From the UHGV virus genome UHGV-0169625: 44,509 nt of DNA; one strand, given 5' to 3'. Made by a program: the position numbers and the translations under genes. Below are positions 1 through 44,509 of the stretch, in pieces. Below the pieces are notes generated by a model that saw only the letters and a program-made list of their open reading frames with translations, was not told the origin of the DNA and did no database searches. The stretch comes from a virus. How positions within the stretch are numbered: position 1 is the stretch's first letter; the number at the start of each line of letters is the position of its first letter.

Positions 1-1446
1 CGGGAAAGTTCCGTCTAAAGTGCGGGTCATATCGTTCAAATCAAGACCTAAGTTTTTAGCAAACGTGACGAAAGCACCGACACCCCCCGCGTAGCCGAGG
101 CCCAGAACCATTGCTTTGGCTATTTGTCTTTGGTCCTTTGTTACATCCTCATAAGCAACGTTGAACACCGTTGATGCGAGTTTCTTATACACATCAACCC
201 CGTTTACAAATACTTCGATTAAATCGTCTTCGCCCGCCAGCCACGCAAGCCCACGGCCTTCAACGTTAGAGTAATCGGCGACGACAAACTTGTGCCCAGC
301 TTCCGGTATGATGCAGCTACGTACCGTCGATGCCGTTAGCTTGGCTACATCGAAACGGCGATGAGCGCGACCCTTAAGTAACGCTGAAATTCCTTTATCC
401 AGTTCATCATCGTGATAGTACCCGCGCGCCAGGTTCTGTGGCTGGAAGCCTTTACCTGCAAATCGTAACGTACGCTTTGCCCCGCCATACTGTATGCAAC
501 CACGGCGACGGTCGTCAGAAGAACGGCCCAACAGCAGTGGGTTATATTTAGTTGATGCAGTTGAAGCAGCCCCGAGGCGCATTTCGATAATCGTACGCGC
601 ATCGTCCGGTAAATCATCATCTGCCAGCAGGTCATTCAGCGTCGACTTCTGCGCGTTGTGGATACGGTGCGCCGGTGCGAGTTCGCGAAGAATCGGAAGG
701 AAGTCTTTACCAGTAAGAGAGCCGCCGTATTTGCGCTGGGCTTCTTCCTGTAACTGTGCCTTGTGCTTCTCCACGGCCTCGATAGCGGCTTCCGCCAGTG
801 CGACGTCAACCTTAAACCCGCGGTCGTTGATTAACTGGTCAAGTTCCAGTACACGGTCTTCGAACTCGGAGTTACCCCACCGCGGCAGCTTATGGAAGAC
901 TTCACGCATCGCAGTGATGTCGCTCACGGCGTACTTGATGAACAGCGCCCACTCGTCCGGGTGTGTTTCTGCGGTGTAGCGGCGGATTTTGTAATTCTTC
1001 GGTGTCGGTTTAGAGAAACGCTGAATCAGCGCCTTGCCGCGTTTATCTTTTGCATTGTCAGCATACACGCCAAGCACTTCACACAGCGCATCAAGTGAAC
1101 CCGGCAGCGCGTGACGAAACGCCCAAATCATCGTATCAATGGTGTTGCTTACGGGAATATCAAAGCCCCAGCAGTGTTTCATGATGAGCCTGTCGAACAT
1201 TGAGCCGTTGTGCCACACCATCTTAATACGACTGTTCGGCTTAACCAGGCGGCGCAGTGCGCGGTGCAAATCACCCGGCATGTCGCTGCCGTCGGTGCAA
1301 TCCCATACCCGCACAGGCTCGTCGTCAAAAGCATATGTGCAGATAAGCACTTCGGTAGTCGGGTGTTCGGCGTAAGCGTAGGAGCCGACTTTCTTTAAAT
1401 CGATGCCGCTGTAGGTTTCAAAGTCTAGATAGAGTAATTCTGGCAT
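1..1446 (-). CDS. DNA polymerase, family A (Pol I-like): N-terminal part with 3'-5' exonuclease domain through motif B; partial, runs off left edge
   Basis: ATG at 1446 (minus) with AAGGG upstream; translation MPELLYLDFETYSGIDLKK (Exo I DxE motif); near position 100 the same frame encodes RQIAKAMVLGLGYAGG (motif B); no stop before position 1, so absent from the ORF track. Confidence 0.85.
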   Translation of the reverse strand, partial: MPELLYLDFETYSGIDLKKVGSYAYAEHPTTEVLICTYAFDDEPVRVWDCTDGSDMPGDLHRALRRLVKPNSRIKMVWHNGSMFDRLIMKHCWGFDIPVSNTIDTMIWAFRHALPGSLDALCEVLGVYADNAKDKRGKALIQRFSKPTPKNYKIRRYTAETHPDEWALFIKYAVSDITAMREVFHKLPRWGNSEFEDRVLELDQLINDRGFKVDVALAEAAIEAVEKHKAQLQEEAQRKYGGSLTGKDFLPILRELAPAHRIHNAQKSTLNDLLADDDLPDDARTIIEMRLGAASTASTKYNPLLLGRSSDDRRRGCIQYGGAKRTLRFAGKGFQPQNLARGYYHDDELDKGISALLKGRAHRRFDVAKLTASTVRSCIIPEAGHKFVVADYSNVEGRGLAWLAGEDDLIEVFVNGVDVYKKLASTVFNVAYEDVTKDQRQIAKAMVLGLGYAGGVGAFVTFAKNLGLDLNDMTRTLDGTFP

Positions 1447-41049: not shown

Positions 41050-41273
41050 TTCTCTTGTTCAGCGGGCCACGTACCGGACGCAACACGTAACGGGGCAAGG
41101 ATTAACACGCGGTCCTCTTCCGTAAGCTGCCCGTTGCGGAACAGGCGGTTGAGCACCCACATAGTGGAGGAGGTTTTACCTCCCCCCATTCCGCACCAGA
41201 TATTACAGCGCGGGTGTTGCAGCATGAACGAAGTCATGAGCTTCTGGTATTCGCGCCTTTGAAACTTACTCAT
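40977..41273 (-). CDS. SNF2-family helicase, N-terminal fragment with Walker A
   Basis: 98 aa; CGMGGGKTS Walker A and LILAPLRVASGTWPAEQEKW; terminates at TGA inside a diverged duplicate segment, different frame from the C-terminal ORF. Confidence 0.5.
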   Translation of the reverse strand: MSKFQRREYQKLMTSFMLQHPRCNIWCGMGGGKTSSTMWVLNRLFRNGQLTEEDRVLILAPLRVASGTWPAEQEKWQFPCLRVVDATGSEKRPLAARE

Positions 41274-42219
41274 TTACCGCCCCCATGAATGCCTTTATAA
41301 ATTCAGCGGCTACTTGCGGGACGATGGCATTGCCATAACCGCGCAATCGTCCCACTCTGGCGGGTATCCCATTAGCCAGCGGGAATGCGCCGGGTTCAAC
41401 TGGCCTGAATTTTCCATCCCGGCATCCGAGCCAGTCAGTATCTGACCAGAAGCCGTGATGCGGATTGGTTGTGTTATTTTCAGACCCTGCTCCGTCGAGT
41501 AGTCCAGCCTGTCGAATGTTCTGTCTTTTCCGTCCTTGCGAATAACTGTCTCTCCGCTCCCTCTGTAATCGTTCGCTGTTGGGGTCGGCCATGCCAAAAG
41601 GTATTGTGCGTGCGTCGCCAGATTGCAATTCGCATTCGGTCTGTTGAAGCGTTTTTCCGCGTAGGCTTGTGGGTCTTTCGCTCTGCTGTTGTTGTCGTCC
41701 GCAACCGCTGGCGTCGGCCAGGTTGTGCGCGCCGAAGAACAGTCTGTCGCGTTTGTGCGGTGCGCCGACGCTACAAGCTGGGAGTACGGCAAACCCGACG
41801 GCGTAGTCTTCTCCTTCCAGGTGAGTTTGTAAATCGCACATCCACGATTTTGCAATTGCTGGCGCAACCTGCTCCCCAAAGAGGACTGGAGGTCGGCACT
41901 CGCTGATAAGGTCGAGGAACACAGGTGCGAGGTGTCTCTGGTCGAACTGTCCGAGTTGCTTTCCCGCCGCGCTAAACGGTTGGCAAGGCGGGCTTCCCGT
42001 CCAGAGAGGCGCATCTTCCGGAACTCCCGCAAGTCTGAGCGCGAGAGGCCAGCCGCCGATACCAGCGAAAAAATGACACTGGGTGAACCCGTCAAGGTCT
42101 TCTGGCTTAACTTCGGTAATGCTTCTTTCATCTACAACTCCAAAAGGTATGTGACCCTGTTTTATCAACTCACGCAGCCACGCGGCTGCGCCTTTATCCC
42201 ATTCATTGTAATAGTTCAT
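41266..42219 (-). CDS. DNA (cytosine-5) methyltransferase, orphan
   Basis: 317 aa; FAGIGG (motif I), PPCQPFSAAGK (motif IV PCQ), FGEQV (ENV-like), GNAIVPQVA (motif X); no adjacent restriction endonuclease. Confidence 0.8.
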   Translation of the reverse strand: MNYYNEWDKGAAAWLRELIKQGHIPFGVVDERSITEVKPEDLDGFTQCHFFAGIGGWPLALRLAGVPEDAPLWTGSPPCQPFSAAGKQLGQFDQRHLAPVFLDLISECRPPVLFGEQVAPAIAKSWMCDLQTHLEGEDYAVGFAVLPACSVGAPHKRDRLFFGAHNLADASGCGRQQQQSERPTSLRGKTLQQTECELQSGDARTIPFGMADPNSERLQRERRDSYSQGRKRQNIRQAGLLDGAGSENNTTNPHHGFWSDTDWLGCRDGKFRPVEPGAFPLANGIPARVGRLRGYGNAIVPQVAAEFIKAFMGAVNE

Positions 42220-42722: not shown

Positions 42723-43002
42723 CAGTCCGTTACCTTACACAAAACGGCAACACCTAAAAACACGGCTACGATTACCATAATAAGGGTAAGCATTGTCATA
42801 ATACACACCCCTCACGTTTCGTATGCTCAATCCCGCAGCGCGGACAGATTCGACAGTCTTCTTCGTAGAACCAGTAAATTTTCATTCCAGCACCCACAGA
42901 TAAATTGCGATGAGCATGCCTAATACGGCGACAGTCATGCCGTATTGACCCTCGTGACAGTAGACACCGGCGGCGAATCCCGCCAGTACCGCGATAATAA
43001 GT

Positions 43003-43698
43003 TTACTTAGCATCTCTACATTCTCCTTCAGGCCACCTATTAGGGAAAGACGGTATATGTGAAACTTCTCTCGCCGCTTTTATTCTTTTAATGGCGGGAC
43101 CTATCTCCGTAACCATTTCGATGAATGTAAACCGGTGTCCTCTGGTAAGATTACATGTCTGACAACAAGAAACGCAGTTAGATACTATGTGTCCGCTTGT
43201 GTTATCAATGCGGTCTACCCCGACTTTTGTAGTGCTTCCGCAATAATGACACGGCTGTGATATCAGTTTAATAACACTTTCCAGTGTTAAATCGCACATA
43301 AGCCCTTTCCCTGAATCCGCTCTTTTGTACCCCAACAAAAGCGCGTACGCCCGCGTCCTTTGGTCCTTATTCACCAGTTCCCTGCGTTGCTTGTTGAGAC
43401 ACTCTCGGCAATCTTTCCGGATATGAGAGCCGTTGCTTTTATTTCCTTTCCGGAAGTTTTCCTCTGTTAAGGGTTTTATCTCTCCGCACTTTCTGCATTT
43501 AACAGGCTTCCCCGTGAAAACATACCAAGGGCTTTCTCGCCGTGATTTACCTTGTAATTTAAGTTTTTCGTCATACTTTTCCTTCCTGTTGGCGTTTACA
43601 CACTCTTTACACCAGCTTTGCAGACCGAGGCGCGTTGACTTTGAAAAATACTCCGTAGTCGCGGGTTTATCTTCACCACATCTTGAACACTTTTTCAT
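43003..43698 (-). CDS. HNH homing endonuclease (free-standing)
   Basis: start trimmed to ATG 43698 (MKKCSRCGEDK, GGAG SD); C-terminal CHYCG...VDRIDN...GH...N...CN matches the HNH motif; lies directly downstream of the polymerase gene. Confidence 0.7.
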   Translation of the reverse strand: MKKCSRCGEDKPATTEYFSKSTRLGLQSWCKECVNANRKEKYDEKLKLQGKSRRESPWYVFTGKPVKCRKCGEIKPLTEENFRKGNKSNGSHIRKDCRECLNKQRRELVNKDQRTRAYALLLGYKRADSGKGLMCDLTLESVIKLISQPCHYCGSTTKVGVDRIDNTSGHIVSNCVSCCQTCNLTRGHRFTFIEMVTEIGPAIKRIKAAREVSHIPSFPNRWPEGECRDAK

Positions 43699-43708
43699 TA
43701 GTAACTCC

Positions 43709-43741
43709 AAAAAAAATACCGACATAGTCATTATATCGGTA
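43709..43741 (-). terminator. terminator-like hairpin between polymerase stop and HNH gene
   Basis: minus strand stem TACCGA/TCGGTA, 13-nt loop containing TATAAT, then eight U. Confidence 0.45.
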
Positions 43742-43774
43742 TTTACATTTTCTACAGCGTATTTCCTAAATCTA

Positions 43775-44509
43775 CTACTTGGCGTATCTGTACATTTCGC
43801 TGCCTTCTGCAACCAAAGGGAAGCCTTCTGCCCATTCCGGTAATTCGCACATCAACCGCTCAAGCTCTGCGACATTGTATTCCGGTAAATCTGGCGTCTC
43901 GCAGATAATCTCATCGTGTACGTGAAGTACAATCGGGTAGCCGTTTGCTTCTACGTTCAGCAGTGCATTAGCCAGCAAATCACGGCACAGCGCCTGAGTA
44001 CAGTTTTCCACCAGTTTACCGGAGTAGGTGTACTGGAATCCCCACTGACGAGTTAACTGGTTTTCTCCCTGATACTTGATGCGCACGTTAGTAGACACCT
44101 TTCCATCTTCGTCTGTCTCTTTCGACACGCTCAATCCGACGCCGGGGTAGGACATAACGCGGCCAGACGGCAACGTCATACGCAACCACCAACCGGCGAC
44201 CTTGTTGCCGTTGTTGTCCGTTTCTACGTTGCGCGAAAACTTAACACCCCGCGGCCCTGCAGTGAACTCTTTACCAGGATTGCGGATGGCCGCCATAGCC
44301 GCGTCTTCAATATCGCGCCAGAATTGTACTATCGCCGGATTGGCCTCTCGGTACATGCGTTTCAGAGCGTCACATGTTCTCCATACTTTCTTATCAAGTA
44401 TATATGATGGTCGGTCATCCTTTTCACCAGGACGCGGTGGTCGCTTGGCGTCCTGAATACGCGCCCACTAGTAACCGCGTGCGGTAGCCCCCCAAATATG
44501 GTCCGGGAA
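43775..44509 (-). CDS. DNA polymerase, family A: C-terminal part incl. motif C; runs off right edge; in-frame TAG at 44468-44470
   Basis: frame of track ORF 43775..44356 (YPIVLHVHDEIICE = motif C) stays open upstream to a TAG at 44470-44468 and again to the window end; same frame as the N-terminal part at the left edge if the window is circular. Confidence 0.75.

Follow-up and report, generated by a model that had tools for sequence, protein, structure and literature searches.

A PacI-like nuclease gene behind the gene for DNA polymerase in a Kagunavirus phage, probably a free-standing homing cassette at a contested site

Why should a nuclease gene stand directly behind the DNA polymerase gene in only a few of many closely related phages? 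The locus that raises this question lies in UHGV-0169625, a virus genome of 44,509 nt that was analysed as a whole (hereafter the window) and that represents a circularly permuted genome of Kagunavirus (K1G-like coliphages, Guernseyvirinae), the genus in which its annotated relatives are placed. A first-pass annotation made from the sequence alone had described the gene as a free-standing HNH endonuclease and read its position as typical of homing endonucleases that target polymerase genes of related phages. Here, we present evidence that the gene (43003..43698, minus strand; ATG at 43698-43696, stop at 43005-43003; defined by its open reading frame, ORF, and translation) encodes a 231-aa protein predicted to be a PacI-like His-Me nuclease, and that it probably forms part of a free-standing homing cassette, active now or until very recently, that would spread between co-infecting phages by cutting cassette-free ends of the family-A polymerase gene (pol).

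The flanks of the nuclease gene matched 371 phage records at 80-95% identity, and four of these (Bas72, Bas73, Bas74 and KMB35) carry the gene, as does one IMG/VR contig (L031). Such sporadic presence indicated that the gene is not an ancestral component of all relatives. None of the six Kagunavirus copies has a broken ORF. JSSK01, which is ~91% identical to the window in this region, has no nuclease gene. In genomes without the gene, the pol stop and the ATG of a small downstream gene for a 43-aa hydrophobic protein overlap by 11 nt, ATGCCAAGTAA (…TATGCCAAGTAAACT), and carriers hold this overlap twice, one copy on either side of the insert. In the left copy (…TACGCCAAGTAG) the ATG has been lost synonymously and the pol stop is now TAG, while the right copy, ATGCYAAGTAA, now both ends the nuclease gene and starts the 43-aa gene. 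This right edge of the insertion reads ATGCTAAGTAA in the window (43003..43013, minus strand; from alignment and junction listings), and the 43-aa gene itself occupies 42882..43013 (minus strand), its ATG overlapping the nuclease stop by 11 nt.

The nuclease ORF begins 76 nt past the pol stop (TAG, 43777-43775), behind the 3' part of pol, the presumed target gene (43775..44509, minus strand; identified from the annotation of relatives). The gene crosses the window junction, its 5' part lying at 1446..1. A longer, TTG-started ORF (43003..43812) was rejected as the nuclease gene, as it extends past the polymerase stop. At the other end, only the last 11-14 nt of the nuclease gene are clearly derived from pol; the idea that the whole protein tail, …PEGECRDAK, is a degenerate old pol C-terminus was dropped, homologues ending in …FPNRY.TGETK. 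Sporadic occurrence at one fixed site, collinear close relatives and precise junctions, which we found here and also in Dhillonvirus (see below), are the features expected of a free-standing homing gene.

The cassette is also younger than, and foreign to, its flanks. Identity between the window and Bas72 is 95.2% within the cassette, and among the other four carriers it is 99.7-100%, compared with 86.9% and 93.8-95.7%, respectively, in adjacent pol for the same pairs, the exception being KMB35, which is identical to Bas72 throughout; DNA downstream of the cassette is 75-91% identical between carriers. The GC content of the nuclease gene is 44.3%, against 52.7% in pol and 51.1% in the genome. 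The window copy departs from that of Bas72 synonymously at 32 codons and non-synonymously at 3, and the nuclease gene is under purifying selection. When the last 700 nt of pol were compared between five carriers and nine non-carriers, all nine fixed differences between the groups fell within the last 27 nt, where between-group divergence is 35% (4-20% in other 35-nt windows) and divergence within carriers is 1%. These 27 nt, referred to below as allele C (…EGSEMYRYAK*, TAG; 43775..43801, minus strand), form the left edge of the mobile unit and are a candidate target or immunity segment.

The sharpest boundary was found between Bas72, a carrier, and Bas70, which lacks the gene, both from the Basel area. 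From -35 to -969 of the pol stop (935 nt) the two have zero mismatches, the block of identity ends at -34, where the alleles switch, and directly downstream and further upstream the genomes differ by ~5%. This pattern is that of a recent exchange ending at the cassette edge, and phage nuclease genes have been reported to mark boundaries of genetic exchange in the same way (PMC10448857). A cassette younger than its flanks and a sharp co-conversion boundary are again as expected of a free-standing homing gene, and, with the sporadic presence and low GC content, they lend support to the homing interpretation of the first-pass annotation.

The protein itself is a different kind of nuclease from the one first proposed. 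Comparison with Pfam returned nothing significant, with no HNH family (PF01844, PF13391, PF13392, PF14279) even at E <= 1; NCBIfam gave no match and PADLOC no defence family at E <= 1. Given the lack of a significant match in these three collections, we set aside the names 'canonical HNH', 'endonuclease VII' and 'defence nuclease' for the protein. PHROG 1035 (phrog_1035) was matched at E = 3e-30; it merely bears the name 'endonuclease VII', and the Pfam family of T4 endonuclease VII (PF02945) was not matched. Word-indexed protein searches recovered few homologues (6, then 23), and an alignment of the nuclease with ten homologues was used to find invariant residues and to build a profile. In this alignment C68, C71, C97, C150, C153, G160, D162, R163, N166, H170, N174, C179, C182 and N183 are invariant and C100 is nearly so.

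The best solved relative of this profile was the restriction enzyme PacI (3LDY; E = 1.5e-4), and hhalign to PacI gave a probability of 94.8% (E = 5e-8), pairing C150, C153, C179 and C182 with PacI C63, C66, C109 and C112 (the second zinc site of PacI), D162-R163 with D92-R93, H170 with Y100, N174 with N104 and N183 with N113. An AlphaFold (AF2) model has a pLDDT of 83 overall and above 90 in the nuclease core, where it places a strand-strand-helix unit at residues 159-187 (strands 159-163 and 175-179, helix 180-187). Foldseek searches of the PDB with the model ranked PacI first (prob 1.00), as the only match below 1e-3, followed by Cas9 HNH, ScoMcrA and Hpy99I. Against viral models, Foldseek matched many uncharacterised phage and giant-virus proteins, in agreement with the description of the PacI group (group 20 of the His-Me finger nucleases) as 'predominantly viral' (Jablonska et al. 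2017, PMC5714182).

PacI has no canonical beta-1 His and uses an omega-loop Tyr, while an Asp and an Asn hold a single metal ion (PMC5714182, PMC4081073); we deduced that this catalytic residue is Tyr100, the sole Tyr in the omega loop, in keeping with the two reviews. The corresponding core of the window protein (aa 139-210; 43069..43284, minus strand) carries the zinc ligands C150, C153, C179 and C182, the metal ligands D162 and N183, and R163, N174 and the omega-loop H170. The strands and helix, the Foldseek matches and the invariant Cys4 site place the protein in the His-Me finger (beta-beta-alpha-metal) superfamily, and to this extent the original 'HNH-motif endonuclease' holds; at the canonical level it fails, Arg163 (in DRID) standing where the catalytic beta-1 His is expected and being invariant in the subfamily. 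The protein resembles the PacI-like clade in lacking the beta-1 His, in its Asp and Asn metal ligands and in having two zinc motifs around the core, while His170 takes the place of the omega-loop Tyr of that clade. Sequence and model alike point to a PacI-like His-Me nuclease rather than a canonical HNH enzyme.

An exhaustive HMMER search extended this family to 16,369 representative clusters (50% identity) at E <= 1e-3. Among the best 150 representatives, 142 bear the motif D-R-x-[DN]…G-[H/Y]-xxx-N-…-CxxC-N, and in these 142 the R of DR is present in 140, position 170 is H in 79 and Y in 61, and position 183 is N in 139. The alternation of His and Tyr at the position of the catalytic Tyr in PacI suggests that His170 acts as the general base here. 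With PacI as the top match by profile, hhalign and fold, with all catalytic and zinc residues invariant and with purifying selection on the gene, the enzyme is probably active.

The overall motif, CxYCG…DRxDN..G[H/Y]…N….CxxCN, is preceded by two zinc-ribbon modules. Module 1, presumed to bind DNA (aa 1-48; 43555..43698, minus strand), has C4, C7, C30 and C33, which are conserved in close homologues, and aligns to PacI residues 1-41, including C4, C7, C24 and C27. Module 2 (aa 62-110; 43369..43515, minus strand) has C68, C71, C97 and C100 and is predicted in the AF2 model to comprise strands 65-67 and 74-76 and a helix at 98-109. The N-terminal CxxC…CxxC module was also seen fused to canonical HNH domains, in two homologues of aa 1-110, P0006 (WHVDHIRP…) and P0024 (PF01844), which marks it as a shuffled DNA-binding module found on other nuclease types. 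Whether compared by profile, hhalign or fold, the protein matched PacI (PDB 3LDY/3M7K) best among PDB entries and no other entry significantly. The two have in common a zinc-ribbon module, a helical linker, a beta-beta-alpha-metal core braced by four zinc-binding Cys, a strand beta-1 that carries DR where canonical enzymes have DH, an Asp and an Asn as metal ligands and a catalytic residue from the omega loop, but they differ in that residue and in an extra N-terminal zinc ribbon here, PacI having a single one. PacI is moreover a chromosomal restriction enzyme that acts as a homodimer on an 8-bp palindrome, whereas the nuclease here is phage-borne, sporadic and fixed in its site beside pol; its two tandem zinc ribbons suggest a longer, asymmetric target. 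T4 endonuclease VII and F-CphI belong to the same superfamily and share the beta-beta-alpha-metal fold with a CxxC…CxxC zinc site, but have HxDH where DRxDN…G[HY] occurs here, and nothing here suggests junction resolution. F-CphI is of interest as an example that Endo VII-like cores can act as free-standing homing enzymes (PMC6083498).

Between pol and the nuclease gene lie further elements that appear to travel with it. The ribosome-binding site described earlier was confirmed as a Shine-Dalgarno GGAG (43705..43708, minus strand) 6 nt before the ATG, and it is kept in Bas72. Directly after the pol stop TAG (43775-43777) comes a conserved 30-nt spacer, TAGnTTTnGnAAATnCGnTGnAG (43745..43774, minus strand), followed by a hairpin of 13 bp with the loop AUGAC and a T-run (43709..43744, minus strand; stem-loop 43744-43714, T8 43716-43709). 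This intrinsic-terminator-like structure, part of the cassette, folds at -20 kcal/mol (z = -3.2) and was the sole terminator-like site in a scan of the minus strand in this region, which found none 3' of the nuclease gene. The terminator-like structure previously listed is hence real, but is the same object as the 'upstream hairpin' and not a second one behind the gene. The TATAAT at 43735-43730 is perfect, as had been claimed; four of its bases lie in the upper stem and two in the loop, which had been thought to contain it. With CTGTAG (43757-43752) and a 16-nt spacer it makes up a candidate sigma-70 promoter (43730..43757, minus strand) embedded in the hairpin. The corresponding sequence is TTGTAG-N16-TATAAT in Bas72 and L005 and TTGCTG-N16-TATAAT in L027, with TATAGT in L031.

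The stretch from pol stop to ATG is homologous in the window, Bas72, L005, L006, L026 and L027 (TAGTAGnTTTnGnAAATnCGnTGnAG), the last departing at several positions, and this homology is kept though the nuclease proteins are only 60-64% identical. All six homologous spacers fold into 12-17-bp hairpins (z -3.2 to -5.5) that differ in stem sequence, and a T-run follows the hairpin in four and partly in a fifth. Comparison of the stems of L005 (GAATACAGG/CCTGTATTC) and L027 (GAGTACAGG/CCTGTACTC) revealed one compensatory change, A-U to G-C. The hairpins were folded one by one, that of the window and Bas72 being offset by ~2 nt from that of L005 and L027, with alignment columns that do not correspond. 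A pattern scan of IMG/VR for the conserved spacer found one further locus only. Taken as a group, these comparisons place hairpin and spacer within the cassette. The hairpin could terminate readthrough from pol, while a weak promoter with its -10 within the hairpin could start transcripts in the descending arm; transcripts begun inside the hairpin would be unable to form the terminator and would leave the ribosome-binding site free. We offer this combined terminator and promoter function tentatively, as somewhat more likely to be wrong than right. T4 restricts the expression of its own homing genes in a way that resembles such a design.

Attachment to the 3' end of polA extends well beyond Kagunavirus. 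Relatives at 45-64% identity were found directly after polA in at least four other phage lineages (L005, L006, L026, L027, L028); in metagenomic phage contigs, P0002-P0005 (60-64% identical) and P0009 (45%) occupy this position, and the metagenomic polA modules are syntenic, with a PD-(D/E)XK nuclease, an Enc34-type SSB and pol. The polymerases of L005, L006 and JLBYU60 are only 64-67% identical to Kagunavirus pol. A Dhillonvirus homologue, 50% identical, lies between pol and the VRR-NUC gene in 26 of 158 records, and the carriers among these have the last ~27 nt of pol recoded by clustered, mostly synonymous changes (GAC ATC ATG TAC AGG TAC AGG AAG TAA -> GAT TGC ATG TAT CGC TAC CGC AAG TAG). 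Homologues at 31-40% identity turn up in quite different surroundings (amid tail genes, ahead of ribonucleotide reductase, beside a methyltransferase), a scatter typical of homing genes. Dhillonvirus pol is in addition annotated with a group I intron (Sodalis phage SO-1, L016) or an intein (Pubbukkers, H135), so that the same pol family is targeted by other kinds of mobile element.

The Kagunavirus site is contested. The last ~9 codons of pol occur in three forms, A (…GAEMKRYAK; GAAGGTGCGGAGATGAAGCGATATGCCAAGTAAACTG), B (…GQELKRYAK; GAAGGTCAGGAGTTAAAACGTTATGCTAAGTAAACTG) and C (…GSEMYRYAK), with A or B and the tight overlap in all nine sampled non-carriers and C in carriers; K1G and Golestan have A, Bas70 and JSSK01 have B. 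A search for allele C found it also in XY2, VIPECOTPH05A, VIPECOMC04 and Ro145c2YLVW; upstream of it, pol of XY2 and VIPECOTPH05A is only about 70-75% identical. At the same junction of pol stop and small gene, XY2 (vB_EcoS_XY2, L034 1365-1862) carries an unrelated 165-aa PF13392 HNH_3 gene (QIG59289.1), which is frameshifted and unannotated in VIPECOTPH05A (L032 1358-1865) and is also reckoned to be present in VIPECOMC04. Ro145c2YLVW (L033 1349-1366) has an empty scar, in which the pol TGA is followed by a 12-nt spacer, GAGGTGGTTCTA, and then by ATGCTAAGTAA. The XY2 element shares the insertion site, the allele-C pol end and the duplicated ATGCYAAGTAA on the right with the cassette, but its protein is unrelated, with a canonical VDHINH…N, and it has no hairpin or spacer of the type found beside the PacI-like gene. 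The presence of three pol-end alleles, of an unrelated element at the same site in three phages and of a scar in a fourth agrees with the earlier suggestion that the polymerase region is a recombination hotspot.

Allele C thus accompanies occupancy, or past occupancy, by either element. Earlier invasions may have left it behind as a resistant or co-converted form, and the cassette may have arrived at a junction that was uncoupled beforehand. Our idea that allele C is the private immunity segment of the cassette was weakened once the allele had been found with the HNH_3 gene and at the empty site. Around the polymerase of EM1 we observed three further HNH genes (L004 821-1318, 1814-2311, 4867-4940), one replacing the methyltransferase, one between VRR-NUC and the small genes and one upstream of pol; EM1 shows that the polymerase module is heavily colonised.

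We infer the following course of events from these comparisons. The cassette comprises 43003-43801 of the window (minus strand), inserted exactly where the stop codon of pol meets the beginning of the next gene and made up of the recoded last 27 nt of pol, the 30-nt spacer, the hairpin and T-run with the TATAAT, the ribosome-binding site and the 231-aa nuclease. In the enzyme, D162 and N183 would bind the metal, H170 of the omega loop would serve as general base in place of the PacI Tyr and the Cys4 zinc site would hold the fold. With a carrier and a non-carrier in the same cell, the enzyme would cut or nick non-carrier DNA at the 3' end of pol or close to it, repair templated by the carrier would copy the cassette in, and the carrier would be protected by its own pol end, which is recoded and split by the insertion. 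Cleavage, exact target, direction of transfer and the roles of promoter and terminator are all read from sequence and are put forward on that footing.

Other explanations of the locus account for part of the evidence. It is unlikely, in our judgement, that the protein is an accessory nuclease acting in trans, whether in PacI-like restriction of host or competitor DNA or as a recombination or junction-resolving enzyme. For this speak its closest solved relative, the proposal that viral PacI homologues are viral restrictases (PMC5714182), the name given to PHROG 1035 and the position of the gene amid replication and recombination genes, but the gene is dispensable, being missing from ~99% of relatives, the phage already has a VRR-NUC resolvase, neither Pfam Endonuclease_7 nor PADLOC was matched, and a weapon acting in trans leaves unexplained the fidelity to the polA 3' end, with recoded junctions, in at least five lineages. 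Exclusion of competitors and homing are in any case compatible and not mutually exclusive. The protein could also be a decaying or inactive homing gene, or a DNA-binding remnant, kept by linkage to the essential polymerase gene. The life cycle of homing genes predicts degeneration after fixation, the HNH_3 gene at this very site is frameshifted in VIPECOTPH05A, and the canonical beta-1 His is missing here; we nevertheless regard decay as quite improbable, as the ORF is intact in six copies with few non-synonymous changes, the residues equivalent to the catalytic and zinc residues of PacI are all invariant, and loss of the beta-1 His is a family trait that active PacI has in common (PMC5714182, PMC4081073). 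We give least credence of all, and very little, to the view that the gene is an ancestral member of the replication module and was deleted in most relatives by way of the short repeats duplicated at the pol end. The direct repeat of 11-14 nt flanking the insert could indeed mediate precise deletion, and homologues occupy the same place in several genera. This history would however need hundreds of independent identical losses, it does not fit a cassette that is more alike between carriers than its flanks and lower in GC, and deletion would leave allele C, yet every one of the nine sampled genomes without the gene has A or B with the tight overlap, and only Ro145c2YLVW resembles such a loss.

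Homing by a mobile cassette remains the explanation we consider probable, and several observations weigh against it or its parts. The exchange between Bas72 and Bas70 could have run in either direction, and ordinary homologous recombination halting at heterology would leave just such a boundary. Allele C also occurs without the PacI-like nuclease and may pre-date the cassette instead of being its own immunity determinant. A consensus promoter scan called no promoter at the TATAAT, the -35 CTGTAG is weak, and the -10/-35 pattern is absent from the L006 and L026 spacers. Except for PacI, no published characterisation was found for any member of the subfamily. A wider proposal, that the PacI-type family consists chiefly of phage homing enzymes rather than restriction enzymes, and that the present lineage is specialised on polA ends across at least five phage lineages, competes for its landing site with an unrelated HNH_3 element and carries its own terminator-promoter hairpin, is one to which we give a little under an even chance.

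Known homing systems offer partial parallels. With T4-type Mob genes such as MobE, the locus has in common an intergenic nuclease gene beside an essential gene of DNA metabolism, sporadic occurrence, co-movement of flanking sequence (PMC2790892, PMC2988022) and a target presumably in the neighbouring conserved gene. Mob proteins, in contrast, combine HNH_3 with a zinc finger, and homing of MobE has been shown experimentally, where here it is read from sequence. I-HmuI and I-HmuII (SPO1/SP82) and I-PfoP3I are likewise His-Me nucleases that home into phage family-A polymerase genes (PMC3428280), but they reside inside group I introns interrupting pol and nick one strand, whereas the gene described here is free-standing, after the stop, with no intron.

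The surroundings of the cassette yielded further observations. Beyond the nuclease gene lie small membrane-protein genes and genes for VRR-NUC, a methyltransferase, an SNF2 helicase and a primase-like protein, so the earlier placement between the polymerase and the rest of the replication block was correct. In the methyltransferase region, two long minus-strand ORFs (41266-42219 and 41310-42131) overlap in different frames; both are methyltransferase-like (FAGIGG, PPCQPFS and GNAIVPQVA in one, WPTP repeats and NPxxSRWLMGYPxxW in the other) and K1G annotates both, which could reflect a frameshift, one gene nested in another or faulty annotation. The window ends share 6 nt, CGGGAA (1-6 and 44504-44509), as in a circular assembly opened within pol with a 6-nt redundancy, which yields an apparent duplication of FP (DGTFPFPDHIW, against DGTFPDHIW in Bas72). 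Within pol, an in-frame TAG at 44469-44471 (minus strand; ATARGY*WARIQ) stands at a codon that is GAA or GAG (Glu) in each of the 13 relatives inspected; it could stem from faulty sequencing, mark an amber mutant or mean that pol is truly truncated or split. A patch of ~75 aa in the pol palm and fingers (aa about 406-480; window ~1-231 and the window end) is strongly diverged from Bas72 in an otherwise nearly identical protein, and blastn to Bas72 fails over ~120 nt; the patch is a mosaic replacement inside pol.

The novelty of the finding is modest. Free-standing homing genes beside phage polymerase genes are already well known (PMC2988022, PMC10448857), and the same gene has been deposited in four relatives under other names: 'endonuclease VII' (Bas72-74), 'restriction endonuclease' or 'hypothetical'. 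What is new is the assignment to a PacI-type clade with His for Tyr, the size of that clade, the window protein itself having been matched by no curated Pfam or NCBIfam model, the exact layout of the cassette, and a natural series in which the site is occupied by this gene, occupied by another or empty. Annotation in relatives should read mobile homing cassette. Should the enzyme prove active, it would be the first of the PacI type for which homing is shown, and would demonstrate that His as well as Tyr can fill the omega-loop position. For phage therapy and engineering, such elements bias recombination around the polymerase gene. The locus offers these states in easily grown coliphages, several from the BASEL collection, including the near-isogenic pair of Bas72 (carrier) and Bas70 (empty), together with three target alleles, a second unrelated element and an empty scar, and could thereby show in what way homing enzymes select targets at essential gene ends and hold on to them, and how competition between two elements for a single site plays out.

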